This document shows, piece by piece, positions 24,065 through 47,290 of a stretch of 64,000 nt of DNA. The notes beneath the pieces are model-generated. The model made no database searches. It saw nothing but the letters and a program-made list of their open reading frames with translations, and was not told the DNA's origin. Location of the stretch: contig JACPMR010000010.1 in assembly GCA_016185945.1 (NCBI GenBank), positions 109,923-173,922 of the forward strand, given 5' to 3'. The translations under genes and the position numbers were made by a program. Position 1 is the stretch's first letter; every line of letters begins with the position of its first letter. Source of the DNA: Candidatus Woesearchaeota archaeon. GTDB lineage: Archaea > Nanobdellota > Nanobdellia > Woesearchaeales > GW2011-AR4.

Positions 24065-25972
24065 ATGGCTGAGTTAAAGAGAGTTCTGGGTTTTTGGACT
24101 ATTCTGGCGCTTTCGATTGCCTCAATCATGGGAACTGGCTTGTTCTTCGGCGCTGCAATAGGCTCAAGCTACTCCGGCAACGCTTCAATACTGGCGTGGC
24201 TTATCCTAAGCTTTGTTGCTTTTTATATCGCAATGTATTTTGCCGAGCTTTCCTCTATGTACCCAAAGGCTGGCGGAGTTTACGAGTTCAGCAAGCATGC
24301 ATACACCAGATTTGTGTCGTTTTTGATGGGGTGGATTGCGTGGCTTGTCGGCAACCTCGCAACTGCTTTGCTTGTTGTAGCAGCTATTGACTACCTTATT
24401 CCGGATTCTTCGCAATTCTGGCTCAAGATGGGCATAAGCATATTGTTGATAATCATATTAAATTTGGTTGCTTATTTTGGAATCAAGGCAAGCGCACTAT
24501 TGCTTGCAGTTTTTGCGTTTATCTCAATCGGCGTCCTGATGGCCTTTATATTTCCGGGATTGTTTCAAATCAATGCAGCCAATTATTTTCCAATCTATGA
24601 ATTTGGATTCTCTTCTGTACTTATAACGATGTTTTTTATTGCAGAAAGTTTTTTCGGATGGGAAAGCGCCACTTATCTCGCAGAAGAAACTCAAGAGCCA
24701 GAAAAGGTTATACCCAAAGCGATTTTAATAGGCACGATAATAATAGGGGTTATAGGAATTTTAACTTTTATCGTGTCGCTTGGGGTTATTCCATGGAGGA
24801 TACTTGCTGCTTCAAACGCGCCTCTGTCCATTGTGTCTGAAAAGGTGCTTGGCAGTTTTGGCATGAGGGCAGTCAATCTTGGAATTTTTGTTGCGCTCAT
24901 CGGCTCTGCAGCAGGAGGCATAATAACAATGCCCCGCCTTATTCTTGCATTGGCGAGGGACAAACTGTTCATCACCCAGTTAAGTGAAATTCATGAAAAA
25001 TTCAAGACTCCCCATAAAGCGATTATTTTCCAGACAATTGTTTCGCTTCTTGTATTCGGAATGGCTTTTGGAAGATACAAAGCCTTGCTTAGCCTGCTAC
25101 TTCCTCTTGGCTTTATGATGTACTCATTTGTGATATTGTCAGTTCCTGTGTTAAGGAAGAAAGAACCAGATACGAAAAGGGGGTTTAAAGTGCCTTTTGT
25201 AGGTGTTGGCTCTATTGTTTTGATTGCCTTCATAATAAGCGTTGTGGCTGTTTGGCTTTTGTCAAATCCTGACGCAGCCAACACGCTCAAATTAGGATTT
25301 TCGCTTTTTTTCGTTGGAGTGCCAATATACCTTATGCTTGAGATATACTACAACCCGGATGCCATAATAAAAATAAACGACATGCTCGCTTATTTGACTT
25401 TATTGTCCGAAAGCATAATTTTGCCAAAAAGCGTCAGAAACGAGATACTTGCATTACTTGGGGATTTGAAAGGCAAAAGGGTTCTGGAGTTTGGCTGCTC
25501 CGTAGGGACATTGACAATGCATCTTGCAGAGGCAGTCAAGCCAAACGGAAGGGTTTATGCAACTGACTTGTCGAGAAGGGACTTGATGATAACAAAGAAA
25601 AGATTGAATAAGAGAAACCATAAGCATGTCATTGTAGTGCATGATGAGCACCAAGTAAACAGGGTGCATCCGTCCATTCCTCATGTTGATGCAATAGTAA
25701 GCATAGGAATGATGGGATATTTGCAGGATGTGAAAAAGGTTTTGAAAGAGATGAGGGAATTATTGCCTTATGGGAGCAAGATTGTTTTTGTTGACTATGC
25801 TGATTTCTTTAATATCATTCCAAATGTCGCATGGCTTTCCAATGACAGAGTTATTGAAAAGATGTTTCGTGATGCCGGCTTTTCTGTCTTTGTGACGAGA
25901 AAAAAGGGGTTGTTCTGGAATTATGTCTATGTTTATGGGATTAAGTTTCAAGAAAATGTGCCGTATGTTTAG
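24065..25972 (+). CDS. APC-family amino acid permease fused to a C-terminal class I methyltransferase domain
   Basis: IMGTGLF, ELSSMYPKAGGVY, GWESATYLAEE; C-terminal RVLEFGCSVG motif I. Confidence 0.88.
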   Translation: MAELKRVLGFWTILALSIASIMGTGLFFGAAIGSSYSGNASILAWLILSFVAFYIAMYFAELSSMYPKAGGVYEFSKHAYTRFVSFLMGWIAWLVGNLATALLVVAAIDYLIPDSSQFWLKMGISILLIIILNLVAYFGIKASALLLAVFAFISIGVLMAFIFPGLFQINAANYFPIYEFGFSSVLITMFFIAESFFGWESATYLAEETQEPEKVIPKAILIGTIIIGVIGILTFIVSLGVIPWRILAASNAPLSIVSEKVLGSFGMRAVNLGIFVALIGSAAGGIITMPRLILALARDKLFITQLSEIHEKFKTPHKAIIFQTIVSLLVFGMAFGRYKALLSLLLPLGFMMYSFVILSVPVLRKKEPDTKRGFKVPFVGVGSIVLIAFIISVVAVWLLSNPDAANTLKLGFSLFFVGVPIYLMLEIYYNPDAIIKINDMLAYLTLLSESIILPKSVRNEILALLGDLKGKRVLEFGCSVGTLTMHLAEAVKPNGRVYATDLSRRDLMITKKRLNKRNHKHVIVVHDEHQVNRVHPSIPHVDAIVSIGMMGYLQDVKKVLKEMRELLPYGSKIVFVDYADFFNIIPNVAWLSNDRVIEKMFRDAGFSVFVTRKKGLFWNYVYVYGIKFQENVPYV

Positions 25973-26682: not shown

Positions 26683-29622
26683 ATGAGAAAAATAATTATT
26701 TGGATTTTTGGGGTGTTTTTGCTGGTTATGCCGCTAGTTAATGCCTTCGTAATAAATGAAAGCTTTGTGAATGAGAGTACGCTCAATAATTTTCTCACAA
26801 CAGGTTATGTAGATTTATTTGATGGAAAATTTCATGCTAACTGGATTTATAATTGGACAAACACTGAAGAGGATGGCAGCATAAGCGATTGGGATGATTC
26901 AGCGACTGGGACACTTGTGACAAGCCCGGTGAAGAAGGGAGTATATTCCATCAGAGCAGACTCTGGCATTTATGACAACTTTGTAAGTGCTGCTGCAACC
27001 GATTTATGCGGAGAATGGTGGTATCAAGATAATGGCGGAAATAATGAGATGCATGGATTTAGGGACAGCGGTTCTACAGCCCACAGGATAGGAAGATGCA
27101 GCGTTGGGGCATGCGGAACTTCTGACAGCTTCTGGACTTATCAAGATTCAGCTTCATTGCAAACTTCAAACATACCAATGGATACAGCATCAGGCAAATG
27201 GGCAAAAATAAGAATGTGTGCTGGTGCAGGCGGCGGCTACATTCTTGTCTGGGATAGCACACAAAAAGGAAGACATGTTGCCAACATATCTAACTTGTAT
27301 GCCATAAACAGGTACGATTTGGCAAGTACCGGAGCATGGGGGTTTTATGTGGATGAGCCTAGGGTATTCCGCCCAAGCGCAGGCGCAAGAAACGCAAGCA
27401 CAGGCTCTATGTCATTTGTATCCCTTCCACAGGAATTAGGTTCGCAGGAGACGTCTATAAAAGCAAATTGGAAAACAATTGTTGGCTCTGGAGTGGTGGT
27501 AAAGGTAAGCTTGGATAATGGAACAACCTGGGACACAATATCCGCGAGTGGAGATTCTGTGACTCCTGGCGGAACTTCTGGGCATTTAGTGTACAACATT
27601 TCTGTAACAGACGCAACTACTGAAATTGATTGGGTTTCATTTGAACGCGGAGTTGCTCAGGCTGTTGAACAAAATTGCTGGTCAATGGATAAAACAGACA
27701 TGAAAGATAACGAAATATTGAAGGATTTAAACAATACAAACAATATGACTATAATCAGCTCTCCCTTAAACGAATCGGGGACAGATTGTAAAATAGGGGG
27801 ATGCATACATTTTGACGGCAATTCTGATTATTTAAAAAGTCAGGAAAATGCCGGAATAACAGGTGCAAGTGCAAGAAGCTGGACTGCATGGGTTAAGCAT
27901 GATGCAGCCCCGGCTACAACCCAAGATTTGTTTGTTTACGGAAGCGAAGTTGACTGCGGAGTTAATGGTTTAATAACCTTAAGCAGCAATGTTTTATACC
28001 ATTTCGGATTTGGCCCTTGCGATATTACTTTCACAGGTTATAAAGCACCGGAAGAATGGACATTTTTTGCTGTTGTTTATGATGGTAATACTCTAACTTT
28101 ATTTATCAACGGGACTAATACAAGTTCCGGAGTTGTACCACTTAATTCTGTGAATAATAAAATAAGCGTAGGTCTTAGGCAGATAGGGGGAAGTCCTACA
28201 ACTTATTTTGATGGCAGAATAGATGAATTAAAATTTTGGGACGGGGCTTTAACTTCTGCTCAAATAACATCTGAGTATAATTCTGGAAGCGGTATAAGTT
28301 GTAGTGGAACAACTGCTCCACCCCCAAGCACACCATCATCAAAATTTCCCTACTCCAGCCCGTTAGGCAGAAGTGGAAATGAGACTTTCGACAGCAATGC
28401 TGTTATGTCTGTCAACTGGTCAACAGCTTCAACTTCAAATGGAGTTGCATCTATCACCAATGGCTTGAGTTCAGCAACACACAAATATCATTATCAGGTT
28501 GCAGAAGCGACTGGTGCTACATTGCATTACCCAGTTTCACAATTCTTTAAATTCAGAGTAAGAAATTCAACTGCAAATTGTAACTTAATAGGATGGATGT
28601 CAACCAATGATACAACAGGAGGAGGTATAAGTTGGTATGAAAGCGGAGGAAATTTTATATTGTATGATGATGAACGAGGTAACTTCGATATTATTGATGG
28701 GTTAAAGGCAGACAGCACTTGGCAAGATGTGGCAGTTAAAGCAGGACTCGATGGCAGAATAAATGTTTCTATAAATGGTACAAAAGTCGCTTCAGTTGAA
28801 TGGAGAGCAGATGGAGCGCCAAACGCACCACCATTGTTTTTTGCATTAAGAAGATTTAAAGGTGCAGACACTTCTTGTGGTTATGAGCTTGATAATCTGG
28901 TTTTTGTAAATGGGACTAATTATCCTGCTGACCAACAACTACCTCCACCACCTCTTGACACAACACCGCCAGGAATAACATCATATAACATGACTTCGTC
29001 TGGAGGGTGCACTAATTGGAACATTGACAAGAATAATCCTTGTACAACCAGCAATACTTTGCCAATTGTAAGCTTTGCAACAAATGAAAGCGCTTTCTGC
29101 AGGATAGGGGTTACTAATGTAAATTACACAAGCATGGGGGTTACTAGAAATTGTTTAGGTGGGGAAGGAACAATACAGCACGCATGTACTTTAACCCAGC
29201 AAGACCAGTTGACACAGCAGAGCTCTTTCATTTACTTAAGCTGCAAAAATGCAAATAACAATGAAAACCCAGCAAGCACTTCTGGAGCATTGGCATTGAC
29301 TATAACGGGATTAGTAGCGGATGAGCCACAAGGCGTCGCTGCAATAGAAACAGGCATCAGCAATGCTCTTGTTTCTGGCTACACAGTTCACTCAAATCAG
29401 AAGATATATGTAAGAAGGCTGGATGGAACCCAAAGTTATGGCACATTTGACAGAGTGGCAAAATGGAATGGAAAGATATGGGCATTTAATTATATTACGG
29501 GATTGGATAATCTGATGGGCATGCTGAATATGACGCCTGTGCTGCATGTGCTTGAGCTTGCAAACTTGAGCACAGCAACTATTACATCTAATGTTCAAGC
29601 AACTATAACTTCAACCAAATGA
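26683..29622 (+). CDS. Secreted LamG/concanavalin-like domain protein
   Basis: Signal peptide; FDGNSDYL, WTAWVK, WTFFAVVYDG, FDGRIDELKFWD; Pro linkers. Confidence 0.85.
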   Translation: MRKIIIWIFGVFLLVMPLVNAFVINESFVNESTLNNFLTTGYVDLFDGKFHANWIYNWTNTEEDGSISDWDDSATGTLVTSPVKKGVYSIRADSGIYDNFVSAAATDLCGEWWYQDNGGNNEMHGFRDSGSTAHRIGRCSVGACGTSDSFWTYQDSASLQTSNIPMDTASGKWAKIRMCAGAGGGYILVWDSTQKGRHVANISNLYAINRYDLASTGAWGFYVDEPRVFRPSAGARNASTGSMSFVSLPQELGSQETSIKANWKTIVGSGVVVKVSLDNGTTWDTISASGDSVTPGGTSGHLVYNISVTDATTEIDWVSFERGVAQAVEQNCWSMDKTDMKDNEILKDLNNTNNMTIISSPLNESGTDCKIGGCIHFDGNSDYLKSQENAGITGASARSWTAWVKHDAAPATTQDLFVYGSEVDCGVNGLITLSSNVLYHFGFGPCDITFTGYKAPEEWTFFAVVYDGNTLTLFINGTNTSSGVVPLNSVNNKISVGLRQIGGSPTTYFDGRIDELKFWDGALTSAQITSEYNSGSGISCSGTTAPPPSTPSSKFPYSSPLGRSGNETFDSNAVMSVNWSTASTSNGVASITNGLSSATHKYHYQVAEATGATLHYPVSQFFKFRVRNSTANCNLIGWMSTNDTTGGGISWYESGGNFILYDDERGNFDIIDGLKADSTWQDVAVKAGLDGRINVSINGTKVASVEWRADGAPNAPPLFFALRRFKGADTSCGYELDNLVFVNGTNYPADQQLPPPPLDTTPPGITSYNMTSSGGCTNWNIDKNNPCTTSNTLPIVSFATNESAFCRIGVTNVNYTSMGVTRNCLGGEGTIQHACTLTQQDQLTQQSSFIYLSCKNANNNENPASTSGALALTITGLVADEPQGVAAIETGISNALVSGYTVHSNQKIYVRRLDGTQSYGTFDRVAKWNGKIWAFNYITGLDNLMGMLNMTPVLHVLELANLSTATITSNVQATITSTK

Positions 29623-32600
29623 GGCAACAAGAGTTTATGGCAAAGAAGGGTGTGCTGATGAAAAATCAGAAAAAATGGCAGGCAGCAAGCTTAGTTGCCC
29701 TTTTGATTATTCTAGTTTCTATGATTCCTTTGTCTCTGGCAGCTGAAAACCAGCAGACTAATAGAATAGAGAAACTCTCTAAAGCCCAGCTTAGTAAACT
29801 GGACGAGCAGGTCAAGGAAAGGCTTAATTCTTCCGACGCCACCATAAAAGTCCTGCTAAAGAAAAAGAAAGCAAAAAAGGTTTTTGGAATTTCAGTTCTG
29901 GAGAATGCCAACAGGAAGGCTGTCTTCAATGCCTTATCCGATTCAGAAGGCAAAGTTTACAGGGAAACAAAAAATTATGTTGTTGCAGAAGTTCCTGCTG
30001 ACAAATTAGCTGATTTGGTTTTGAGCAATTCTGTGGAAATGATGTATGCTGAGCAAAATTACAACTTACTTCTTGAGCAAAGCGTTCCTGCTGTCAATGC
30101 TCCTGCTGCATGGAATATTGGATATACAGGAGCCGGAGTTAAAGTTGCCGTGCTGGATACCGGAATAGACTATGGGAATAGCGCTTTTCAAAATCGAGTT
30201 GTTTTGTCCCAGGCATTTACAGGAGAAAATCACACTATTGACCTGCATGGGCATGGCACTCATGTTGCCGGCATCATAGGAGGCAATGGCACATTGAAAG
30301 GAGTTGCTCCTGACGCATTGCTATTAAATGCAAAGGTACTGAATGACTATGGCAGCGGAACTTCATCATCAATAATTGCAGGCATTGAATGGGCTGTGCA
30401 AAACGGGGCAAGAGTGATTTCCATAAGCTTTGGAAAATCTGACAGCTCCCAGGACATTCCATTATTTGAATCGTTGCAATATGCGATTGACAATGGAGCA
30501 GTTGTTGTTGCAGCATCCGGCAATTGCGGAAGCTGTGGAAGCTGCAATGGGTTTTTTGGAGTTACAACTCCCGGAAATTTCGAGCCTGCCATTACAGTGG
30601 GAGCTGTTGACGACTTGAAGCAAATTGCCTGCTTTTCCTCGGGGCAGGATTTTGGAAGCTACGTCAAGCCCGATGTTGTTGCGCCTGGCGTCAATATAAA
30701 CTCATATTATATTAACAGCCAGCTCAAGGCATTAAGCGGCACTTCAATGTCCACTCCCCATGTTTCAGGAGCAGTGGCTTTGCTATTGCAGAAAAATTCC
30801 AGCCTGAACAATTCCGAAGCAAAAAAGCTGCTTGAAAGTTCTGCTGTTGATTTAGGCGCAGGCGGAAAAGACATTTCTTACGGAAGCGGATTCATTGACA
30901 TAAGCAAGCTTGTTTTGGGCAATGCCGCAAACCAGACATTAGTCGTCAACAACACCAATATCACAAATCCCATAATCCAAAACACAACAAATGGGCTTAT
31001 TGTTGATTTCAGAAAAACTATAGATGTAAACGACACCAATCCAATCAGTCTAAGCAGCGAGCAATACCTTGCCAATATTTCCTTAACAATTGCCAAAGAC
31101 GGCATTCCATCAGTGCAGGAATATTCGGAAATGCATTATTTTGAATACAACTTTACCAAAAGCTCCGAGATTGGCAATTACAATATGAAATTCAATCTCT
31201 GCGGAGACAATTGCACTAGTTTGAATTACAGCTTCGATGTTGTTGACAAAAATGATGGCATCCAGATTGTAAGCATCCAGCCAATAAAGGAAAGCGATAT
31301 TGCATTTATAAAAAGCGTGAGCAACACTTTCAGCATTGATGCTGCCAACGAGTCAGGTGCTTTAGAGTACTCAAGCGCGGAAGCAAGCAACACATGCACA
31401 GGTGCAGGTTTGCTTAACCTAAATACATTGTATTATGCTTACATTCAATCTGCCGGCGATGTAGATTGGTTTTACTTCAACGTGCCCGGCGCAGGCACAG
31501 GGGAGTTTACGACAACACTTGATGTCCCCACAAACAGGGATTATGAGCTGGAGCTTTATGACTCGTGCTCAAACATGATATGCTTCTCATATGGAGGGAC
31601 TGGCACGGATGAAAAATGCATAGCCAACATAAGCAGCAAGAGCAAGATGTATGCAAAAGTCTATGGCTACAATAGTCAATACGACGCGTCCAGCGAATAT
31701 TATATCAAGAGCACTTTTCAGGAAAAGACAGGATATGCAAGGCTCTATGTCAACAACTATGAGCCGTCAGGGTATTATTTATACATATACATTGATGGCT
31801 CTCTTTACGGGAGCATTAGTGTAAGCGGGTACATAAATTATTTGGTGAATCCTGACATTGTGCTGTCAAGCGGAAGCCATTCCATAAGGCTGATAGGGAC
31901 AAACAACTACAACAGCAAAACCTATGACAAGACAATTACACAAACCATTAGCGGCGGGGCTGTCACAACCTTCCAATACAATATAGACTTGAGAGACTGC
32001 ACCTCAGGCAGCTGCTGCGATTCATATGGCTACTTCAAGGGCACTAATTGGATTTGCAACAGCATATACCAAACAAGCTATGGCTGCCCTTGGGGAACTG
32101 ACGCAGGAAGCGATGTTGGGATAAGATACCAAAGGATGTATTGCAGCGGCACAAGCTCGTCCTGCAACGGAAACACTGTATGGGGAGACTGGGCTCTTTA
32201 CGCAAGCTGCAGCTCAAGCCAAAGATGCAATTCCGCGACTTTAAGCTGCGAGAATATAGTTGTATGCGGCGATGGAACATGCAGCAGCAATGAAGTATGC
32301 CCAAAAGACTGCCTGAAAGTCACTTCTTTTACTGCGGCAGTGCCTAGTGAAGTAAGTGAAGGGCAGGAAATCAATGTAGAAGTAAACATAAAAAATATCG
32401 GAACCGTAACGCAGTCAGGAAAAGTGGAAGTTGGCATTATACCAACTGACTTTTTTAACAGGAATATTCTCCAAGCGGATACTTCTTGGCCAGTAACAGG
32501 GTGCTGCGAGCAAAATGAATACTATGACACGAGAGAAGTGGAAAGAGATCCCGGAAGTCAGAAGTATACTGTGTTTACACTGAAAGCTCCCACCACATCG

Positions 32601-35600
32601 TCATTTGATAATTGCGATGCAAACTCGCCAAAAAAATCAGCATGGGGCAGCTCTTTTAAAGTCATAGCAGGCGCTTACGACGCATGCGGAGGTAGCTATT
32701 ATTCAAGCATTGAAAAAACCATCAGCATCAAGAACAGATATGATTACATTGACTTGGTTGATTATAGTTTAGTGCCTCCCAACCCCATAGTCTATAAAGG
32801 AAATTCTCTTAAGTTTAGATATCAAATAAGCAACAGCTGGCATTCTTCGGTAAATGTCGGGCTTGGAGCATCACTGAGAGATTCTAATAGCAAGGGGTAT
32901 AATGATGAGCCAAATGATATAGTCATTTCGGTGTTGCCCGGGACTTATTGGTATGAAAGGACATTTACTACAAACAATAATTACATATTTGGTAATTATG
33001 ATGCTGCTTGGGGCGTACATAAAGTTGACGCTAATAATAAGTTTGCTGGTGAAATTGAATTTTCAAATCCTTTGTGGGCAGATGATTTGGTTAAAGTTGT
33101 CGGTTGCGGTGATGGCGCATGCGGCAGCGGAGAAACATCAACGTCATGTCCTCAGGACTGTTATGCAAACATTCAGATAGGCAGGATAGAAGAAATAAGT
33201 CCAGCAAGTGCTGTGGAAAATCAGCAAGTTACCTTCCAAGCTTCTGTATCTAATACCGGGACTGTTCAGGGAGAGAAGTCAATAGAGGGCGCTGTTGTGC
33301 CTGAAAGCTGGGCAGGAATAATTTATCCAGCTACCGAGTATTCAACATCTTATGTTGAGCCAATAACCAAACCATGTCCTGACAATAAATATTATGATGC
33401 TTTCAATATCACCTTAAATCCAAATGAAGGCGAATTTGTGCAATTTACTGTGATTGCGCCAAACAGAACTTCAGTAGATGCCTGCAATCCAAGCAGGAGC
33501 GCATGGGATCCGAATGGGAGATTCAGAGTTATTGCAGGAACATTCCAAAATGCAGGCGACACATATGAAAGCTTTAAGAATGTTTCTTACACAGTAAATC
33601 AATATGTCTGTTTAGTAGATTCTGAATGTCCAGACGGAGCTTTGATAACCCAATATTGCTTGGGCAATGATATCTATGAGGACTATAATGCCGGAAAATG
33701 CTCAGATAATAAATGCTCCTTTCAGCCAAAATCAAGGCTAGTCAAAAGCTGCGCTTATGGGTGCACTTCCGGAACCTGCAATCCCCCTCCTTGCAACTTC
33801 AAAGACGGCTCTTCAATGGACTGCGAATGCGACTCTGATGTGGAGTGCCCTTCGGGACATTATTGCAACCAGGTTTCAGGGCCTGATGCTTGTGAGAAAA
33901 TAATTTATCAAAATCAATGCTCAAATTTCAATGATTATTTCTGCGAAGATGGGGCTGTGAAGAAATGCGTCAATAACGGAAAGTTTTGGGAAAAGCAGAA
34001 AATCGATGGTTGTACTGGCAAATTTCAATATTGTGATCCATCGGTTGTTGATGGAACTGGGAACTGCTCTGAGTATCCTAAGAATTTTGATGTATGGCTT
34101 GATTATGCAGACACTGGAATGGTTGTGAACAAACAGCCAGGGGACAAATTAAAGATTAATGTTTACTCTGAATCTTCATATACATTGAATGTTATTTATG
34201 ATTCAAGCATCTTTGCAGGCAATTGCAGAACAATGTCTGTGCATTCAGGCGAAAATACTTGTAGTTTGACTGTGCTGGACACTGCTGAAGAACAAACAAT
34301 TTTCATTAAGGTTGAGAACAAGCCAAAGCAAGTCAATATAATAAACAAGCCAGAGCTTCTCATAATAACAGATTCTGAAAAACTTACTCAGCAATTCCAG
34401 TTTGAATCGAATGGAGTAAAAGCAGTTTTAAAGCAGGCATATGCAAATGCCCGAGATAAAGGAGTTGTTTATGACTTAAGCTGGTACAAGAACGAATTGG
34501 GAACTTCAAGTCCATTTAGTTCTTTTGTTGCTTACAACGAGAAAATAACAAAGCCATCAATGACAGATAATTCCTATAGCACAGCAGTCTCTACATTCAT
34601 TAAAGACAAATGCACTGATTGCAAAGACGTGATGATTGTTGGGGATGATTATGTGGTGCCGGGGTATAGGGCAGAGACTGTAAATTACGACTCAGACTGG
34701 TATTATTTATGGCTAAATAAACGTATAGAAACTTCACCTATTTACACTGACTCACCTTATATCATCAAGAAAAAAACATTTGGAGAAATAAATTCCCTCT
34801 TTGTTGAAAATGGAAAAAAGAAAAATGTAGCTTTAGTTTATTCGAATAATGCAGATGCAGAAGTTATAAATGAGATAAGTAATTTAAAAAACTTAATCAA
34901 AACAAAATATTCAATTGACAGTGAAATAATTGATTCTTCTGCGGTTGCATGTAATTCCTTCAACAAGCTTAAAGACAAAACTTTGATTATCATAGGAAGA
35001 AAAAACTCAAATAATCTTTTGCCTTGCTATTCTATGTTTGAATCTGACTTTAACAACTCAGTTTCTATAGAAAGAAATTTATGGTCTAATAAAAAAGATT
35101 CCTCTGTCATTATAGATGAAAAGAAAAGAGCCATATTAACATTTGAAGAATTTATTAAAGATAATCAAGAGTTAGTTAAATTCAAGGAAAAATCTAAAGT
35201 TTATGCATATGCAAATGATTTCCTGGATATTTTTAAAAATTTTGAGGTAACATTAGATGATGGAACAAAAATAACTATAGAGCAAGGATTCAGAGGCTAT
35301 ATTATGGGCCAATGCGAATATATTCCTGGCTTAGTAAACAGCCTCAAATGTTCTGCTTTTGACATGACTGTTTCCTCAATTCCCGGCGTTGGGATTGTTA
35401 CTGATGCGAGAGATGCGGCTTTAATCTGTCCAGAATTTGTTGCTGAAGGAGGTACTTTAAATGGCATTGTCTGCGGTGCATCTACAGGAGGCGCAATTAC
35501 TTCTGCGACAACTATTATTTTTGGAGCTACAGTTGTTGGAGGAGTTGCTTCAGAAGGGGCTGATATTGCACTTTCAACTATTAAGGTTGTTGCTAAAACC

Positions 35601-36329
35601 ATTGCAAGGGTGGACAAGAGAATCTTTGAGGTATTTAAGTTTGGGAATAAGATTGATTCGATGAAATCTTTCTTTAAGATAAACGACTGGAAAGAGGTTT
35701 CAAAAATTAAGTCTATTTTGAAGAATATGCTTGAAAATGCAAGACAGATAAGAGTTTTAATTGATACTAAAATTGATGTGATTGGAAAGCACATAAAGAG
35801 TTTTGATAATTTGGTAAAAACTTCTAAGACTTATGATAAAGTATCTAATTTCCTGAAAAACAATTTAAGAAATAGTGATAGCGTTAAAAAAGCATTAGAT
35901 GAAGGAAAAATCAGTCCTGATGACTTAGAATATTTTGATGAGATGCTGGCTAACAAGAATTTGAAAGTTAGTAACTTTGGTAAAGGTGCAACTGAACAAG
36001 GCGGTGTAAAGTACCCTGTTACACTTGAGAATTTTGGAAAACCTCATGATGAGGCATATGTATTTGTTAGAAGTAATTATCCCAATCCTCAGAAATTCAG
36101 CCATCAACTTCAAGTAAAAAATGGGGAGAAAGTTTATAATTTCAGGTTGGATAGTGATCCTAAACCCCATTCAAATATTGAAATCAGAAAAAAAGAAGAG
36201 CTGGATGCAATAGTTAATGAACATTTAGACCTTGATTTAGATATTAAAAATCAAAACGATATGGACGATGCTCTTGAGAATTTCTTTACACTCATTAAAT
36301 CAACTGTTAGTAGGGGTGAACTGCCATGA
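29619..36329 (+). CDS. Giant secreted S8 subtilase with PPC/CARDB/Cys-rich repeats, N-half of a C25-like domain, pre-toxin-like segment and candidate toxin tip
   Basis: LDTG/HGTHVAG/SGTSMSTPH triad; GDVDWF PPC-like; CGDGxC repeats; LLIITD..MIVGDDYVVP..YTDSPY; SIPGVGIVTDARD; basic divergent C-terminus. The subtilase call is firm, the toxin call is inferred. Confidence 0.8.
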   Translation: MRQQEFMAKKGVLMKNQKKWQAASLVALLIILVSMIPLSLAAENQQTNRIEKLSKAQLSKLDEQVKERLNSSDATIKVLLKKKKAKKVFGISVLENANRKAVFNALSDSEGKVYRETKNYVVAEVPADKLADLVLSNSVEMMYAEQNYNLLLEQSVPAVNAPAAWNIGYTGAGVKVAVLDTGIDYGNSAFQNRVVLSQAFTGENHTIDLHGHGTHVAGIIGGNGTLKGVAPDALLLNAKVLNDYGSGTSSSIIAGIEWAVQNGARVISISFGKSDSSQDIPLFESLQYAIDNGAVVVAASGNCGSCGSCNGFFGVTTPGNFEPAITVGAVDDLKQIACFSSGQDFGSYVKPDVVAPGVNINSYYINSQLKALSGTSMSTPHVSGAVALLLQKNSSLNNSEAKKLLESSAVDLGAGGKDISYGSGFIDISKLVLGNAANQTLVVNNTNITNPIIQNTTNGLIVDFRKTIDVNDTNPISLSSEQYLANISLTIAKDGIPSVQEYSEMHYFEYNFTKSSEIGNYNMKFNLCGDNCTSLNYSFDVVDKNDGIQIVSIQPIKESDIAFIKSVSNTFSIDAANESGALEYSSAEASNTCTGAGLLNLNTLYYAYIQSAGDVDWFYFNVPGAGTGEFTTTLDVPTNRDYELELYDSCSNMICFSYGGTGTDEKCIANISSKSKMYAKVYGYNSQYDASSEYYIKSTFQEKTGYARLYVNNYEPSGYYLYIYIDGSLYGSISVSGYINYLVNPDIVLSSGSHSIRLIGTNNYNSKTYDKTITQTISGGAVTTFQYNIDLRDCTSGSCCDSYGYFKGTNWICNSIYQTSYGCPWGTDAGSDVGIRYQRMYCSGTSSSCNGNTVWGDWALYASCSSSQRCNSATLSCENIVVCGDGTCSSNEVCPKDCLKVTSFTAAVPSEVSEGQEINVEVNIKNIGTVTQSGKVEVGIIPTDFFNRNILQADTSWPVTGCCEQNEYYDTREVERDPGSQKYTVFTLKAPTTSSFDNCDANSPKKSAWGSSFKVIAGAYDACGGSYYSSIEKTISIKNRYDYIDLVDYSLVPPNPIVYKGNSLKFRYQISNSWHSSVNVGLGASLRDSNSKGYNDEPNDIVISVLPGTYWYERTFTTNNNYIFGNYDAAWGVHKVDANNKFAGEIEFSNPLWADDLVKVVGCGDGACGSGETSTSCPQDCYANIQIGRIEEISPASAVENQQVTFQASVSNTGTVQGEKSIEGAVVPESWAGIIYPATEYSTSYVEPITKPCPDNKYYDAFNITLNPNEGEFVQFTVIAPNRTSVDACNPSRSAWDPNGRFRVIAGTFQNAGDTYESFKNVSYTVNQYVCLVDSECPDGALITQYCLGNDIYEDYNAGKCSDNKCSFQPKSRLVKSCAYGCTSGTCNPPPCNFKDGSSMDCECDSDVECPSGHYCNQVSGPDACEKIIYQNQCSNFNDYFCEDGAVKKCVNNGKFWEKQKIDGCTGKFQYCDPSVVDGTGNCSEYPKNFDVWLDYADTGMVVNKQPGDKLKINVYSESSYTLNVIYDSSIFAGNCRTMSVHSGENTCSLTVLDTAEEQTIFIKVENKPKQVNIINKPELLIITDSEKLTQQFQFESNGVKAVLKQAYANARDKGVVYDLSWYKNELGTSSPFSSFVAYNEKITKPSMTDNSYSTAVSTFIKDKCTDCKDVMIVGDDYVVPGYRAETVNYDSDWYYLWLNKRIETSPIYTDSPYIIKKKTFGEINSLFVENGKKKNVALVYSNNADAEVINEISNLKNLIKTKYSIDSEIIDSSAVACNSFNKLKDKTLIIIGRKNSNNLLPCYSMFESDFNNSVSIERNLWSNKKDSSVIIDEKKRAILTFEEFIKDNQELVKFKEKSKVYAYANDFLDIFKNFEVTLDDGTKITIEQGFRGYIMGQCEYIPGLVNSLKCSAFDMTVSSIPGVGIVTDARDAALICPEFVAEGGTLNGIVCGASTGGAITSATTIIFGATVVGGVASEGADIALSTIKVVAKTIARVDKRIFEVFKFGNKIDSMKSFFKINDWKEVSKIKSILKNMLENARQIRVLIDTKIDVIGKHIKSFDNLVKTSKTYDKVSNFLKNNLRNSDSVKKALDEGKISPDDLEYFDEMLANKNLKVSNFGKGATEQGGVKYPVTLENFGKPHDEAYVFVRSNYPNPQKFSHQLQVKNGEKVYNFRLDSDPKPHSNIEIRKKEELDAIVNEHLDLDLDIKNQNDMDDALENFFTLIKSTVSRGELP

Positions 36330-36949
36330 GAAAATTTATTGTAAATAATAAGGGATTTATAGAATTGACATTAGACCCTGAAAGGAAAAAAGACCAGTAT
36401 TCGCGTATGCAGGATTTGAAGAAATTATTTGAACTATTTTCCAAATACTTAAATGTAAGATATATTTGTATACTTAGTGGATCATCCCCTATTTCAGAAT
36501 TTTTTTCTGTTCATGACTTTAGAAATTCTTTACAACTCATGAAAGGAGTCTATGATTATATTAACAACCATGCTATTGAATGCAAAGGTACCAAAAAATT
36601 AATTGGGGATGAATTCCATAATAGTTATGCTTACAGCGAGTATATTCTAAAAATTGATGAATTTTTTAAATTAATTGACAATTATGTTAAACTCAGGGAG
36701 AAATATGAACCAAAATATAACGCAAGGAATTGGATTATTACAGAAACAACTTTTGAGTTACTTGATAATAATAATGGGACTATGTTGGCATTCCATAATT
36801 ATGATAGCGGCCCTTTTATCATTAGCAACAGATTAGATGATATGTCCAATCCTGTAACCCCTGATTCTGATTTTGTTAATAAAATCTTGCCTATATTAAA
36901 AGAATGGGAGAAAGAAATAGAACAAGAAGAAAAAAATGCAAGGAAATAA
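36326..36949 (+). CDS. Candidate immunity protein
   Basis: No signal peptide; ATGA overlap and SD GGTGA inside the end of the toxin gene; AT-rich like the toxin tip. Confidence 0.6.
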   Translation: MRKFIVNNKGFIELTLDPERKKDQYSRMQDLKKLFELFSKYLNVRYICILSGSSPISEFFSVHDFRNSLQLMKGVYDYINNHAIECKGTKKLIGDEFHNSYAYSEYILKIDEFFKLIDNYVKLREKYEPKYNARNWIITETTFELLDNNNGTMLAFHNYDSGPFIISNRLDDMSNPVTPDSDFVNKILPILKEWEKEIEQEEKNARK

Positions 36950-37106
36950 ACTGTTAATCAGCATTATTGTATTGTTAGTTTTGCCCAGCTTAGCCTACGC
37001 ACAAACCCATTTAGAAGAAACCTCCTCCGTCTCAAGAATTGTCGGCGAATCTCCGACAGAGATGCTGAGGCAGATGCAGAGAAACGGGATAGAAGGTGAA
37101 AAATGA
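36936..37106 (+). pseudogene. Truncated paralog of the 38002 gene (signal peptide plus 24 conserved residues)
   Basis: MQGNKLLISIIVLLVLPSLAYAQTHLEETSSVSRIVGESPTEMLRQMQRNGIEGEK*. Confidence 0.8.
37014..37084 (+). repeat. 71-bp direct repeat, second copy at 38080-38150
   Basis: 66/71 identical by manual comparison; all 5 differences are at synonymous third positions. Confidence 0.9.
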
Positions 37107-37257
37107 CCTTTGAATCTGATTCGGACATTGAATGTGCGGCTTGCGGAAATAACTTTTACAGAGGCAGTATTATTGGGCAGTGCATAAATGATGGATTGTT
37201 TATTGCAGGAAAAAATAATGACGGAGATATTAACGAATCAGTTAAAGCAGAACAAAA

Positions 37258-37668
37258 TCACAGCCCAACCTCTTTCAACAGCTCCGAAGTAGAATATACT
37301 TTTACTTTTGATTGCCGCTTTAAATGCGGATCATTTGACCAGATTGATAGTTTAAGTTTCAATGCTAGAGCAAGGAAGTCTGTATCATCAGGATGCATTG
37401 GTATTAATGAAAGAGACTCTGGCAAAAATTGCTTGTACTCATCTAAAGGAATAAACTCGACAAATATTGCAAGGTCTCTCCTTAACTCCTTGAACTTTTC
37501 TAGTGATATGCCCGTTTTTTCTATAATTTCATCTGAGTATTTGTTGATTTCCTCCAGTGCAAATTCGGGAGCAAAAAATTCCAAATCTTGGTCTACTAGC
37601 AAGCCTTTGGTAAATGAATTTTTCCAGAAAAATGTAAACAGAATATTAGTGTCTACTACAAATTTCAT
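37258..37668 (-). CDS. PIN-domain toxin (PIN_2-like)
   Basis: FVVDTNIL, HPDDTDFLALA, IWSND. Confidence 0.9.
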   Translation of the reverse strand: MKFVVDTNILFTFFWKNSFTKGLLVDQDLEFFAPEFALEEINKYSDEIIEKTGISLEKFKELRRDLAIFVEFIPLDEYKQFLPESLSLIPMHPDDTDFLALALKLKLSIWSNDPHLKRQSKVKVYSTSELLKEVGL

Positions 37669-37866
37669 TTATACTAAACCCTTCTTTTTTAACTCATTAA
37701 ACCTGCCTCTTCTAGAGGCTCTTTGCAATTTTACAGACCAGTCGGTCATTTCTTTTTCTTCTTCTAATTGCTTTACTAGCCTTTTGACTAAGATGGACAT
37801 GTCTACTCCAGATTCTTTTATTTCTTTATTTAGCTCATCAGGAATTTCAACCTTTAACTCTGCCAT
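37669..37866 (-). CDS. Antitoxin partner (RHH/VapB-like)
   Basis: MAELKVEIPDEL; directly upstream of the PIN gene; SD GGTGA. Confidence 0.8.
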   Translation of the reverse strand: MAELKVEIPDELNKEIKESGVDMSILVKRLVKQLEEEKEMTDWSVKLQRASRRGRFNELKKKGLV

Positions 37867-38001
37867 TTTGCACTCACCGGATAAATACTATGAAGTTGTA
37901 TATTTAAATGTTGCGGAAGTCGTTGACTCTCAAAAATATGATAATGCTCTATTAAAAGTATTGGACGAAGTTAAAAAATTGAAGGGGTATTTAGGCGAGA
38001 A

Positions 38002-41000
38002 ATGAAAAAGGATAAACTAATAACTTCATTTTTTGTATTTGTACTACTTATTAATATAGCCTCAGCCATAACCACTTACGAAGAAACCTCCTCCGTCTCG
38101 AGAATAGTCGGCGAATCACCTACAGAAATGCTGAGGCAGATGCAGAGAAATGAAATAGATTTGCAGCATGCAACTTACTTTGGCCATAACCTTATTCTTA
38201 ATGAGAAAATATCTATTTTGAATGAGCAGTTTAAGGCAAACAAGCATGTTGAGACTGGATGGATGAGAAGAGAATTAGATAATAAAATTCCGGGATTTAG
38301 CACAAATGAGCTGTTTTTATTGGAAACAACTGGAGAGCCAGATACGCTATATGCAAAATCTAAAACTCTTACGTTTTTTGATGAAAAAATAACTCCAACC
38401 CATTTGCAACAATGGCAATTGTCATTCGAGACAAACAATCCATTAATGCTGTGGGACAGCCCTTATGCAGGCTCGTATCTTCCGAAAGAGGATACTTTTG
38501 TTTCGAGACTGGTAAGGGACACAACAATAATTGCTCCAACTTCGTTCAACAGCCCTGAATTCACAAAATCTTTCCTTTGCCAATTAGTAAATGACAAAAC
38601 CATAGGGCAGGTTTTCAAGGAAGCAAGAAACTTCCATTACAATGGAGGCTCAAAAACATCAGGAGATAATTTAATCGGATTAGTTCTGCAGTCATATGCT
38701 TTGTACGGCAATCCAAGGCAGGTAATAAAAATGGACTGGAACGATGCAGATTTGGAAAAAATAAAAAAATATTGCGAAAATTTCCTAGAAAACCTTGCGC
38801 CAGACATTGATTTTCTTGAGCAGGTTGGAAACTATTCAAAGTTCAGGAAGCATGTTGTGTTTGAGATTCCTTCATACACAATTGAAAGCAACGGCAACTA
38901 CTCTATAATAAACGCTGAGAACACTTTCCAGAACCTTGAATTTGGGGAATTAGTGCTGCCAATGGCAGTAAGGACAACACATTTCCCATTAAACACTTTG
39001 ATAACCAACTTTTCTGTTGACTACATTGGAGATTATGTTGATTTGACAGTCAATGACTTGCCATCTTACGAGCAGGAACTAGCAAACAGGACTTGCTATA
39101 CAGACAATGAAAGCCATTCCATACAATTTGAAAACTCATACACTGAAAACAGCCAGGATTTCATTGCAAGAATAACTCCAGTTGAAATTATAAACTGCAC
39201 TGAAGGAAGATTCAGGCTGTACAAAAAATTCAATTACTCAGTAGATTATATAGCGCTAAGCCCTGTTTTAATAAAAAGCATTGTTGCGCCGATTGTAGAG
39301 CCGGTAAACAGCATAGTCAATATAAGCATTGAGCTATTGCCATTGACAAGCAATGTATCAAATGGCTCCTTGGCGATATTTGATGAAAACAACAACAAGC
39401 TCTGGGAGCAGGAAACAACAACAAACATAACTAATTACAATGCCTCATTCTTAGCGCCAAACAAAGAAAGCTTAAGCACTTACAGCGTTGAATTCATTGT
39501 AAATAATGAAACCCTGAACTTTGATAAATTCTCTCTATTTTCAATATTGCTGGATGTCAGCGCAGATATTCCGGTGCATGCAAACTCAACTCAAGCAATA
39601 AACCTTAACTTTTATTCCTATTCTGCAGACAGCTTTGAGCTTCGAGGAAAATACTATCTCACAAAAGGAACGCAAATCATAGCAGAAGGCAATATAACAA
39701 AAACAATAAGCCAAGGGGCAAACCAGCATCAGCTTGTACTCTCCAACCTCTTAAGGGAAGAGCAAAGCTATACCCTAACTTTCGAGCTTAATTACCTCGA
39801 GCAGAGCAAGACATTAAGCTATATATTGAGCACAAACAATGTGCCGATTCTTTTCGCTGACATCTCTAAAAGTTACACAGAAAATGACACTGTAGCTATA
39901 AACTATACGGCATTTGATTATGACAACGACGCATTGAACATAACAATAAACGATTCCAGATTCGTAAACCAAGACAATGCATTTTTCTGGAAAACAAATA
40001 AGGGAGATGAAGGGAATTATAGTGTGAAACTTACAGCAAGCGACGGCTTAACCCAAGATACAAAAACACTTTCTTTCAGCATATCAAAGCCGCCTGTATT
40101 AACATTCATGAAAATTGAATCATTAAGCACAATATACACTCAAGGCTACTATAAAATATTTGAGTTTGTAATATTTAATGATGGATTTGTTACTATAACA
40201 GATGTCCAATGGCAGTTCGACACTGGTGACGCAAATATAATATCAAACAATCAGAATATAACTTCTTTAAGCCCTGGAGAAAGGACATTTGTCATTGTTG
40301 AATACAATTACACAAACAATGGAGTTTATAATGTGACTGCAAAAGCAAGCGGCATGGGGCAAGAGCCAGTAACAGCTCAATTAAGCTCAAGCGTGAATAT
40401 TGGAGGGCTTATAATAAAAAGGTTTGATGCAATCAGCATTATCGGAACTAATGCTGTATTTGAAGTGGAAGCCCAGAATATGCTTAACGAGCCGATAGGC
40501 AGCATAAGATGGACACTGGCAACAGGAGATGGAAGCATAATAAACTCGACAAATAGCTTCATGCTTGCTTCAAATGAAACCATAACGCTATTATTAGAAT
40601 ATAATTACACTTCAGGCAGTGTTTATAATCCAGTTTTTGAAATAACTAATGGTACTTACTCTAATTCAAAGTCAATGTTGATAAACACAACAAGCCCGGG
40701 AATATTGCCAACTCCTGTCCCGGCAAACAGAACGTTTCCAGATGTAAGCAAATTCCTTGTCAAAGACTCCTCTGGCAACAGCATAGCATGGTTCGGAGAT
40801 GCCGGCAATATTGTTATAAAAGGCGTGCTTGAGCAAAACTCCAATTATCAGGAACAGCCAAATGACCTGTTTGCAATGGCAAAGGATGGAAATGTGTTCT
40901 TTGTAATAGCGCAAAACGGCTCAATGTACATTGACGGAACTTTAACTGAAAAATTTGAAGGAACCTTGACATCCTCCAATGGGGTTAATAATTTGGGAAT

Positions 41001-45446: not shown

Positions 45447-46472
45447 TCATAAAATACTGCCAAACAATGACGTGAAAATTTTCATAAAAAGGAAAAAAAA
45501 TGACATTGAACCAAAAATATAAAGCGGAAGGTACTTAAGCCCGCCTTTTATGTCCCCTTTTTCAACTATAGCAACTATCAGCGAGGAGAAAAGGGATATG
45601 ACAAATATTGCAACCATTGAAAATATCCTGAAGTCATTGGGATTTATGTTAACCTTTGAAAACAAGAATGGAAGGGTTGCCGCCTTTTGGGCTGCAACTG
45701 AAAGCTGCCCTACAAATTTTAAGGTGAGTATCAGCAGATGAAACGAAAGCGCAAACAGCAAGGGGCTTATTACAACAACAATAACCGAGATGAATATTAC
45801 ATACGCTATTGAAGCTGCAGACATCTCGTCTTTCAGCGCTTTTGTTTCCTTCAAATTGTCCACAAGCCTGTCGATAAGCTGGGCAACATTGCCTCCGCTT
45901 TCAATTTCGCTTATTACCAAGTCGACTGTCCTGCGAAGCATCAATGAGTCGTATTTTTCAGAGAGTTCTATCAGTGCCTTGCTGACCTCGTAGCCCGTCA
46001 TCACTTTTTTTGAGGCCTTTGCCATCTCGCTCCCCAGAACGCTGAATCTTGGCTTTATCGCTGCCCACAGAGCCCTTTCAAAAGTCATGCCTCCTTTCAG
46101 ATTGGCTGAGAGGATCTGAAGAAAATCCGGCAACTGCTCTTCCATCGTTTTTGTCCTTCGGTATATCCTCAAATCCAAGTAAAAATACACAAGCAATATG
46201 AATAATGCTGCAAAAAATAATTGTATGGCTGCCCATGCAATGAAGGAATAAACATAAACCTCAAAAAGCGAGAATTTTTTCAGGTATGGATAAATAAAGA
46301 CTATAAAAATCAATGTTGTTATAAAAGCTGAGATATAAAACAAAACTCCGAAGAACTTGTACGGGACTTCATTAAAGCCTGCCTTGAGCAGGTATCTTCT
46401 CAAATTCGGCGCAAGCTTCTTTGGCACGAATGCCTTTCCAAATTCCTCCAAGAATATTATTTTGAGTGCCAT
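45447..46472 (-). CDS. Type II/IV secretion system F-family membrane platform protein (TadC-like)
   Basis: MEEQLPDFLQILSANLKGGMTFERAL; multiple TMs; next to the ATPase. Confidence 0.88.
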   Translation of the reverse strand: MALKIIFLEEFGKAFVPKKLAPNLRRYLLKAGFNEVPYKFFGVLFYISAFITTLIFIVFIYPYLKKFSLFEVYVYSFIAWAAIQLFFAALFILLVYFYLDLRIYRRTKTMEEQLPDFLQILSANLKGGMTFERALWAAIKPRFSVLGSEMAKASKKVMTGYEVSKALIELSEKYDSLMLRRTVDLVISEIESGGNVAQLIDRLVDNLKETKALKDEMSAASIAYVIFISVIVVVISPLLFALSFHLLILTLKFVGQLSVAAQKAATLPFLFSKVNINPNDFRIFSMVAIFVISLFSSLIVAIVEKGDIKGGLKYLPLYIFGSMSFFFLFMKIFTSLFGSIL

Positions 46473-47290
46473 CAGAGATTCACCATCGGCCTTATTGACT
46501 TGAACATTGTTATGAATATAAACTCAATAATTCCAAAGAAAAACACAAACAAAAGCAGTGCCTTCAAATCAATAGGCAAATTAATGAAGCTTGATATGAC
46601 AATAAGCATTGCAATGCCAAGCGAAGGCAGTATAACGGCTCCAAGCATATAAAAAATAACCAAAGTACTGAGCTTTTTCCCGTATTTCTTTATCTCTATT
46701 TCCTCTTCCTTGGTTATTTCGTCCAAAACCGATTCAAGCGGCTTTGTGACATCGATGCCAAGCTGCAACGCGTTGTTTACATGAAACAGTATTTTTCTCA
46801 ATTTATCGGAAGGCGAGTAAACCATTGCGTTGTTAAGAGCCTTCTCAATTGTATTGCCTGTGTTAATGTCGTCAACTATTTCCTTTATGTATTTTGCAGC
46901 TATGCCCCTGCTTTCAGAGGTTTCTATCAGCGCATTGAGCAAAGGCCTTCCGGAATAAAGCTTCACAAGCAGATATCTTCCAATAAAAAGCGCTTCTTTG
47001 TTGATTTCACGCTCTCTTTTCCTTATTTTTGCCTTCACTGTAAGAAAGGAATATTCAAAAAGCAGGATGAATATTACAACAAATATCGGCGCAAGAAGCG
47101 GCAATGGCAATTTTGCCTTTTGAAGCACGAAAAAAAAAAGAGACGTAAACAAAAATGCGTACAAGGCATTTATTTTGAGATTCTTATTCACGAATTCTAC
47201 AGGAGTATAAGGCAGGTGGGCTATCCTTAGCCCTGTCTTCAGGTTTGGAGAAAGTGAAGCTATTCTGTCTACAAAGCCGATTTTACACAC
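46472..47290 (-). CDS. Second T2SS F-family membrane protein (TadB/C-like)
   Basis: SGRPLLNAL, GNTIEKAL; TM pattern. Confidence 0.85.
   Translation of the reverse strand: MCKIGFVDRIASLSPNLKTGLRIAHLPYTPVEFVNKNLKINALYAFLFTSLFFFVLQKAKLPLPLLAPIFVVIFILLFEYSFLTVKAKIRKREREINKEALFIGRYLLVKLYSGRPLLNALIETSESRGIAAKYIKEIVDDINTGNTIEKALNNAMVYSPSDKLRKILFHVNNALQLGIDVTKPLESVLDEITKEEEIEIKKYGKKLSTLVIFYMLGAVILPSLGIAMLIVISSFINLPIDLKALLLFVFFFGIIEFIFITMFKSIRPMVNL

Follow-up and report, generated by a model that had tools for sequence, protein, structure and literature searches.

In Bacteria, Sec-dependent polymorphic toxins join a signal peptide, a long surface stalk and a pre-toxin segment to a variable C-terminal toxin; a cognate immunity gene lies adjacent, extra cassettes lie downstream, toxin ends are swapped by recombination and subtilisin is among the in-built proteases (PMC3482391, a survey that judges such systems to be rare in archaea). 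Archaeal polymorphic toxin systems have been predicted, with contact-dependent delivery, nuclease tips as a common feature and adjacent immunity genes, and none had been characterised experimentally as of 2021 (PMC8416519, summarising Makarova et al. 2019). Here, we analyse a locus of a Candidatus Woesearchaeota archaeon within a stretch of 64,000 nucleotides (nt), referred to as the window (assembly GCA_016185945.1, contig JACPMR010000010.1, positions 109,923 to 173,922 of the forward strand). In this locus, the gene P0001 (29619..36329, + strand) encodes a protein of 2236 amino acids (aa) and overlaps the 207-aa gene P0002 (36326..36949, +). We propose, with a probability of about 0.78, that P0001 is exported by Sec to the cell surface and belongs to a polymorphic toxin family, that P0002 is its cognate immunity protein, and that the cassette running from a GDD motif in P0001 to the immunity gene recombines.

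The locus and its relatives have the layout of the bacterial Sec-dependent systems, with a variable tip as the presumed toxin, an adjacent presumed immunity gene, a subtilisin-type protease in the window and, in relatives, extra downstream cassettes and recombinational swapping. They differ from them in that no RHS, filamentous haemagglutinin, HINT, PT-VENN or PT-TG domain was found here by Pfam, and in that the immunity proteins match no known immunity family. Three elements are specific to the DPANN family described here: the module that contains the GDD motif, a pre-toxin segment built around a Cys loop, and a third gene of the type of P0005 that lies downstream in the window. Cassettes are known to start at the motif VENN in CdiA and at PxxxxDPxGL in Rhs. 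As in CdiA/CdiI and Rhs, a sharp conserved motif, here GDD(F/Y)VVP, opens the variable cassette, and orphan cassette-immunity pairs occur downstream. In contrast to both, there is no two-partner secretion domain, CdiB, RHS repeat or PAAR here, the host is a single-membrane archaeon, and the swapped unit is large (~560 aa), extending beyond the tip to include a folded flavodoxin-like domain and the pre-toxin segment.

With the predicted archaeal polymorphic toxins, our locus shares the predicted delivery of a toxin and the adjacent immunity genes. VARTIG of Thermococcales is likewise a large secreted archaeal protein with immunoglobulin (Ig) domains, a recombining hypervariable C-terminus and variable downstream genes (PMC8416519). 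However, no identifiable toxin domains are reported for VARTIG in that text, whereas tips of the relatives described here match ADP-ribosyltransferase (ART), PD-(D/E)xK and HEPN families. No published description of the DPANN GDD-module family was found in full-text searches; supplements and Makarova et al. 2019 were outside the scope of that search, and a prior listing is possible. The latter work is said to survey predicted archaeal polymorphic toxin systems and to recognise four groups.

Architecture of P0001 and its coupling to P0002

The 2236-aa open reading frame (ORF) of P0001 has possible alternative starts at M8 (29640) and M14 (29658). Judging from hydropathy, its N-terminus is signal-peptide-like (29658..29750, +), with a K-rich stretch, a hydrophobic segment at aa ~22-41 and SLA/AE; the Kyte-Doolittle hydropathy over 19 residues (KD) peaks at 2.53 at aa 22-24. 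By this measure, P0001 is a multidomain protein with an N-terminal secretion signal. A Peptidase_S8 domain occupies aa 171-424 (30129..30890, +; PF00082, E value 1.1e-51 in Pfam), with the motifs DTGID at aa 180, HGTHVAG at aa 212 and GTSMSTPH at aa 374 (D180, H212, S376). From the profile and these intact Asp/His/Ser triad motifs, P0001 is a predicted S8 subtilase. It continues with a variable Cys-rich stalk (aa 425-1394; 30891..33800, +) holding two CARDB-like Ig modules, for which the CARDB match is sub-threshold (21.5 bits, Pfam cut-off 22.7). While 43 Cys are found in aa 45-1394 and 64 in aa 1-1990, the last 246 aa (aa 1991-2236) contain none.

The stalk leads into a module conserved throughout the family (aa 1395-1865; 33801..35213, +), made of Cys knots, an Ig-like sandwich, an alpha/beta domain and a flavodoxin-like domain. 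The alpha/beta domain closes with the invariant VMIVGDDYVVP (nt 34629-34661), after which the flavodoxin-like domain begins; this GDD motif (34629..34670, +) is the boundary of the swapped cassette and the onset of a drop in G+C. In the alignment A3, composed of 46 rows of family members, the residues N257, C271, C274, G281-D282-D283, V285, P287, Y289, N404, C543 and C558 (A3 numbering) are invariant. The AlphaFold2 (AF2) model built on A3 has a predicted local confidence (pLDDT) of 85-97 for model residues 10-470 and below 50 for residues 481-616, which correspond to the pre-toxin segment. When this model was compared with 48,161 chains by VIA-align, residues 91-183 resembled Ig/PapD/MSP-like sandwiches (Z 8-9) and residues 325-470 (P0001 aa ~1719-1865) resembled flavodoxin-like domains. 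Among the latter were BcsB (6yg8_A, Z 12.1), GH115 N-terminal domains (Z ~10) and a cell-wall anchoring domain, that from the S-layer protein of Methanococcus voltae (9fsa_A; Z 11.6 and rmsd 2.7, with 120 residues aligned of a 135-residue chain). Since the flavodoxin-like fold is common, we treat the S-layer likeness as a lead and not as a finding. Foldseek of the module model against the Protein Data Bank (PDB) gave weak Ig-like matches only, and the A3 profile matched nothing below E 0.08 among PDB sequences. A by-eye assignment of the GDD domain to peptidase C25 was unsupported, as no caspase/gingipain-type chain appeared among 50 VIA-align rows in a search in which the domain was not run alone.

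The pre-toxin segment (aa 1915-1990; 35361..35588, +) carries TDARD, the invariant Cys1937 and Cys1952 on either side of a loop, and a Gly/Ala hydrophobic stretch. All 46 rows of A3 keep the order D-x-x-D, Cys, loop, Cys with Gly/Ala-rich hydrophobic stretches alongside; the loop measures 9-25 residues between the two Cys (68 in one row), and a 19-mer with KD of at least 1.6 lies beside it in 23 of the 46 rows. This segment had been likened to PT-TG, a pre-toxin domain that we take to be Pfam PF14449. The likeness did not hold up: none of 10 segments (window and nine relatives) matched PT-TG at E <= 10, although HMMER filters discard most matches above 0.1, so that a very distant link is possible. 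The only near-threshold Pfam matches were to two hydrophobic domains, namely the RTX N-terminal domain in L005 (E 1.4e-5; 25.4 bits, cut-off 26.8) and L004 (E 0.038), and SseC in L012 (E 0.099). RTX and SseC are pore-forming or translocon proteins. The pre-toxin segment may be a family-specific element that acts on membranes or is involved in processing.

P0001 ends with a basic helical linker (aa 1991-2100; 35589..35918, +; isoelectric point (pI) 10.0) and a tip of 136 aa, the presumed toxin domain (aa 2101-2236; 35919..36326, +), which is acidic (pI 4.95). That both are free of Cys fits a part acting in a cytoplasm. Window-type tips, of which there are three copies, are 48-50% identical to the window tip and keep DEA..VF.R, SHQLQ, YNFRLD, H.N, N.H.DLDL and RGELP; the R.D/H.N/H residues singled out by the earlier note as possibly those of a nuclease are conserved in 3/3 copies. 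Across profile, PDB-sequence and look-alike searches, the window tip could be assigned neither to a nuclease nor to any other family, and its Atlas look-alikes are unnamed or DUF6978-bearing clusters (0.88-0.90).

The presumed immunity gene P0002 starts in an ATGA overlap with the toxin stop at 36326, preceded by GGGGTGA. It has no signal peptide and no hydrophobic segment (maximum KD 0.97). A word-indexed search of 5.8 billion proteins returned no relative of P0002 apart from a 136-aa call of itself, and its homologues surfaced solely through synteny. The predicted complex of tip and P0002, from a 3-row alignment of each, scored 0.00, 0.72 and 0.01, which speaks neither for nor against binding.

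Altogether, the gene organisation described by the earlier note is borne out in most respects: the 2236-aa ORF, the signal-peptide-like start and the intact S8 triad motifs are as it had them, SIPGVGIVTDARD (aa 1920), the Gly-rich hydrophobic stretch behind it (KD 1.65 at aa 1959), FRLDSDPKPHSN (aa 2175) and NEHL (aa 2200) all lie where it placed them, and the ATGA-coupled 207-aa gene has the Shine-Dalgarno sequence and the lack of a signal peptide that it reported. Some of its descriptions need amending. From the proposed PPC/CARDB/Cys-rich stalk, the Cys richness stands, CARDB is reduced to the sub-threshold match and PPC drops out, with no Pfam match in the whole protein or in pieces. Similarly, the tip that it called basic and AT-richer is indeed AT-richer (G+C 0.326 after the GDD motif), while the basic part is confined to the linker.

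Exchange of tips and small genes around a conserved module

The relatives of P0001 share its overall architecture and conserve its module, their tips co-vary with the small ORF downstream, and their cassettes are swapped. About 70 relatives in DPANN archaea keep the C-terminal GDD module and the Cys-bracketed hydrophobic pre-toxin segment and carry unrelated tips. A search with aa 1480-2236 retrieved 10 proteins of 1463-2421 aa, each covering 21-51% of that region. An exhaustive search with aa 1880-2236 gave 13 proteins, among which only P0017 (66% identity) covers the tip; the matches to the 12 others end at query position 126-199. The closest protein relatives are labelled Woesearchaeota or Nanoarchaeota. 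When one genome per species was scanned, 49 loci were obtained, from metagenome-assembled genomes labelled Woese-, Nano-, Aenigmat- and Micrarchaeota, Diapherotrites and Altiarchaeia, some of the loci bearing automatic "Methanosarcinales" labels and one "Pseudomonadota". At E <= 1e-10, sampling of the phylum found the module in 18 of 301 genomes and in 16 of 225 genera (a count that includes the unpublished G243); the family to which the window belongs is represented by three further genomes, all of which lack it. Conflict systems commonly show patchy distributions of this sort, which we counted in favour of a toxin.

The C-terminus is complete in 42 loci, namely the window and 41 fetched ones. 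BLAST groups their tips, taken as the last 200 aa, into 20 clusters, 13 of which are singletons, including that of the window. Pfam recognised Scabin-like ART in five of them, PI3_PI4_kinase in two, and Enterotoxin_a, Pertussis_S1, NarE, SprT-like, ABC1, HEPN RiboL-PSP, YhcG PD-(D/E)xK and PGDYG in one each; one tip may be counted under several families. Among these, Scabin-like ART, Enterotoxin_a, Pertussis_S1, NarE, HEPN RiboL-PSP, YhcG PD-(D/E)xK and the metallopeptidase SprT-like were taken as known toxin families. Whether two loci share a tip does not depend on how closely their modules are related: the median module identity is 31.5% in pairs with a shared tip and 29.4% in all others.

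Next to the tips, a + strand ORF starting between -26 and +23 nt from the toxin stop was found in 39 of the 41 other complete loci, as in the window; these ORFs encode 69-356 aa, and 997 aa in one case. Their clusters follow those of the tips: the small-ORF and tip clusters are identical sets for L018/20/21/36 and for L027/31, and the small-ORF clusters L035/38/41/52 and L007/42 each fall within one tip cluster. Among the 780 pairs formed by 40 loci, tip and small ORF are both shared in 6 and both unshared in 743, which gives an odds ratio of 29.7 and a Fisher p of 1.9e-6 for pairs that are not independent. The tip type of the window recurs in two metagenome loci, L054 and L056, in the latter as the last 95 aa of P0017. 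In each of them, an ATGA-overlapped ORF follows the tip and encodes a homologue of P0002 (196 aa in L054, 28% identity over 94 aa, E 5e-8; 189 aa in L056, 26% over 175 aa, E 5e-11). The comparison of homologous loci suggested by the earlier note thus came out as it had predicted, with relatives keeping the stalk and pre-toxin region and changing both the tip and the downstream gene, and the layout of a coupled immunity gene is supported by P0002 homologues that follow the window tip type.

Several loci capture the exchange of cassettes. P0032, the gene that opens L053, matches P0007 at every one of the 308 aa leading up to GDDFVVP, and the identity between the two drops to 27.5% beyond this motif. 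Behind this first toxin of L053 lie, in order, a 228-aa ORF, a P0005 N-terminal fragment of 51 aa, a vapBC-like pair and a 5'-truncated toxin copy; this copy is 90.6% identical in nucleotides to the first gene over 662 nt, ending at GDD, and past GDD it is a window-type cassette. L055 has a second GDD-bearing frame of 778 aa downstream of a 2072-aa toxin. In L057 (genome G299), a 2295-aa toxin and a 198-aa ORF precede two short toxins of 575 and 536 aa (L057 10063-14727), each followed by an unrelated small ORF. These short toxins have signal-peptide-like starts, and their alignment to the long toxin sets in only 20 and 34 residues past GDD, which suggests that neither head nor stalk is needed for export. 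The window shows a change of composition at this boundary, with G+C and GC3 (G+C at third codon positions) of 0.419/0.41 ahead of GDD, 0.326/0.26 beyond it and 0.287/0.255 in P0002. Judging from the swaps in relatives and this drop in composition, the exchanged unit seems to begin with the GDD motif and to close with the small ORF, and the lower G+C of the window cassette would mark a separate acquisition.

Sequencing runs gave a view of the region in other samples. Of the words sampled from 33800-38200, 98-100% are present in four runs of one groundwater-metagenome study, from which the genome may derive; no RNA dataset was among the runs matched for the window region. Contigs of two other studies (at least 85% likeness) cover the stalk near GDD, the pre-toxin segment and the vapBC region and hardly the tip and P0002, the uncovered parts not being evidence. 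One contig each in the metagenome studies X7 and X8 (at least 85% likeness; side 37; weak) joins 38101 back to 34626. These joins of the P0005 5' region to the toxin GDD motif may represent a short-form toxin in another organism.

Genes around the presumed toxin-immunity pair

The locus had been delimited at 29619-38150. The coupled pair stands, and 36950-38150 has to be removed from it, as there is no third coupled gene there. This interval starts within a 56-aa duplicate of the P0005 N-terminus (36936..37106, +) and holds a vapBC-like pair on the - strand (37258..37866), composed of a PIN_2 gene (37258-37668, E 1.7e-21) and a 65-aa partner (37669-37866) without family. As a PIN-domain toxin with a small upstream partner, the pair is of the predicted VapBC type. 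A 300-aa ORF at 37103..38005 was rejected as a gene, being an antisense frame of these two. The pair lies between the arms of a direct repeat (36991-37093 and 38057-38159; 103 nt, 83% identity) that marks the duplication of the P0005 N-terminus. Elsewhere, such a pair occurs only in the nearest relatives of the window, L053, L054 and L056, at cassette junctions, a position from which it may travel with, or stabilise, toxin cassettes. In L056, a stray toxin-stalk-like fragment (1710-1931; ..CSKYPKNFDVW.DYADTGVAVN..) between this pair and the P0005-like gene looks like a rearrangement scar.

P0005 (38002..41091, +) encodes a secreted protein of 1029 aa. A P0005-like gene follows the toxin on the + strand in 29 of the 33 loci with at least 2.5 kb downstream, and from this recurrence we identify it as a conserved third member of the locus. 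The first ~700 aa of these proteins are conserved and have no Pfam family, and the C-termini vary among adhesin-type domains (CARDB, dockerin, PKD, cadherin-like). Against PDB sequences, P0005 matched nothing below E 0.08.

Upstream, P0004 (26671-29622), a secreted LamG_3 protein of 983 aa, overlaps the toxin start by ATGA. We did not count it in the system because it has no counterpart beside the toxin in 53 fetched loci. Other genes of the window include a second large secreted subtilase of 1318 aa (17551-21507; Peptidase_S8, E 6.1e-45, with an Inhibitor_I9 propeptide), the N-terminal part of which resembles toxin heads in ~20 other loci; a 635-aa amino-acid permease fused to a C-terminal S-adenosylmethionine-dependent methyltransferase domain (24065-25972); and T2SSF-like and T2SSE-like genes of the type IV pilus or archaellum type (45447-48737, -) near the island of large secreted proteins. 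A Peptidase_M23 protein is encoded at 57340-58527 (E 6.5e-15); since four Nanoarchaeia genomes are reported to carry M23 peptidoglycan hydrolase homologues (PMC12352652), it could be an anti-bacterial enzyme.

Proposed mode of action, alternatives and significance

According to the polymorphic toxin model, P0001 would be exported by Sec and displayed on a Cys-stabilised stalk; the variable head and stalk consist here of the S8 subtilase and the Cys-rich Ig-like modules. The conserved module, with its Ig-like sandwich, GDD(F/Y)VVP alpha/beta domain and flavodoxin-like domain, would dock or anchor the protein; the Cys loop and hydrophobic segment would act on a membrane or be cleaved; and the Cys-free linker with the ~135-aa toxic tip would enter the target. 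The producer would be shielded by the cytoplasmic, translationally coupled P0002, and diversity would arise through recombinational exchange of the cassette that starts at the GDD motif and closes with the immunity gene. Within the scheme, we infer that the tip is toxic, that P0002 neutralises it by binding, that the hydrophobic segment inserts into a membrane and that delivery occurs on contact.

Several observations weigh against this model. The window tip has no family match in Pfam, NCBIfam, PHROGs or PDB sequences, and the single-sequence AF2 model of aa 1880-2236 (pLDDT 34.7) is unusable. P0002 and the 41 other downstream small ORFs belong to no established immunity family, the sole immunity-type match among the 42 being a weak one to Colicin_Pyocin (E 0.007). 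With only three copies, the pairing of the tip type with P0002 could reflect shared descent. At the thresholds used, 25 of the 780 pairs share a tip without small-ORF similarity and 6 share a small ORF without a tip match. The genome of the window (1.5 Mb, 24 contigs, 90.7% complete) contains no orphan cassette, second toxin or second copy of P0002, stand-alone extra cassettes being found in the relatives L053, L055 and L057. Finally, toxicity, binding, export and contact dependence are all predicted from sequence only.

Some of these points would also suit a variable surface adhesin or protease for host attachment, the C-terminus of which would serve host specificity or antigenic variation, with the small protein as a chaperone or partner. 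The absence of a recognisable toxin domain in the window tip, the adhesin-type Ig/CARDB modules of the stalk and the adhesin-type C-termini of the P0005 relatives agree with such a role, for which VARTIG provides a precedent as a toxin-free hypervariable archaeal surface protein (PMC8416519). We nevertheless regard it as very unlikely, since relatives carry tips of intracellular-acting toxin families (ARTs, PD-(D/E)xK, HEPN), the small ORFs lack a signal peptide where checked (P0002), and tip and linker are free of Cys, unlike the extracellular stalk. It is distinctly unlikely, too, that the hydrophobic segment is a membrane anchor, leaving linker and tip in the cytoplasm of the producer as a regulatory or retention tail with P0002 as a cytoplasmic partner. 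The window stretch barely reaches KD 1.65 and is Gly/Ser/Thr-rich, the two invariant Cys suggest an extracellular disulfide, and the toxin-family tips of relatives argue for an exported effector; these features have to be set against the hydrophobic 19-mers (KD of at least 1.6) beside the Cys loop in half of the members (23/46) and against the positive-inside pattern made by the pI 10 linker right behind the hydrophobic stretch, in a tail without Cys.

A toxin may also act at a distance. For Sec-exported polymorphic toxins, subtilisin is listed as one of the proteases that process them (PMC3482391), and forms reduced to a signal peptide and a cassette occur in the family, so that the S8 subtilase or another protease could free the cassette as a diffusible, bacteriocin-like toxin. 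This appears unlikely to us. An S8 head is present in 17 of the 39 toxin frames with closed N-termini and missing from the other 22, and the subtilase therefore cannot be a general releasing device. The earlier note's suggestion that it frees the tip or breaches a target S-layer is weakened by this count and by the existence of the short forms; moreover, the likeness of the flavodoxin-like domain to an S-layer anchor (9fsa_A, Z 11.6) fits retention at the surface, even if the fold is a common one.

Returning to the polymorphic toxin model, we tentatively consider a bolder version of it, possible though on the doubtful side, in which toxin, immunity protein and P0005-like surface partner form a three-gene weapon shared across several DPANN phyla and equipped with a new delivery unit. 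The flavodoxin-like domain would dock the toxin in the S-layer, and the disulfide-bracketed loop between Gly/Ala stretches would carry the Cys-free effector through the one membrane of an archaeal cell independently of any known secretion machinery. Heads such as the subtilase would be additions of the long forms, whereas the short forms would consist of a signal peptide and the cassette. If this is true, these episymbionts could be aiming at their hosts as well as at rival DPANN cells, and the window would encode a new toxin, in the tip, together with a new immunity protein, P0002.

Polymorphic toxins are a main currency of cell-to-cell conflict in bacteria, and those of archaea are so far predictions. 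DPANN archaea live attached to other cells. The family described here offers a concrete, testable system for asking by what means they do damage or compete where the cells meet, with a cassette boundary defined at GDD and dozens of tip/small-ORF pairs, several of them with recognisable enzymology. It also offers a conserved third gene and a pre-toxin segment that must explain how the archaeal envelope is crossed, and it supplies many candidate new immunity families. These small archaea thus seem to own a weapon of the kind that bacteria use against their neighbours.

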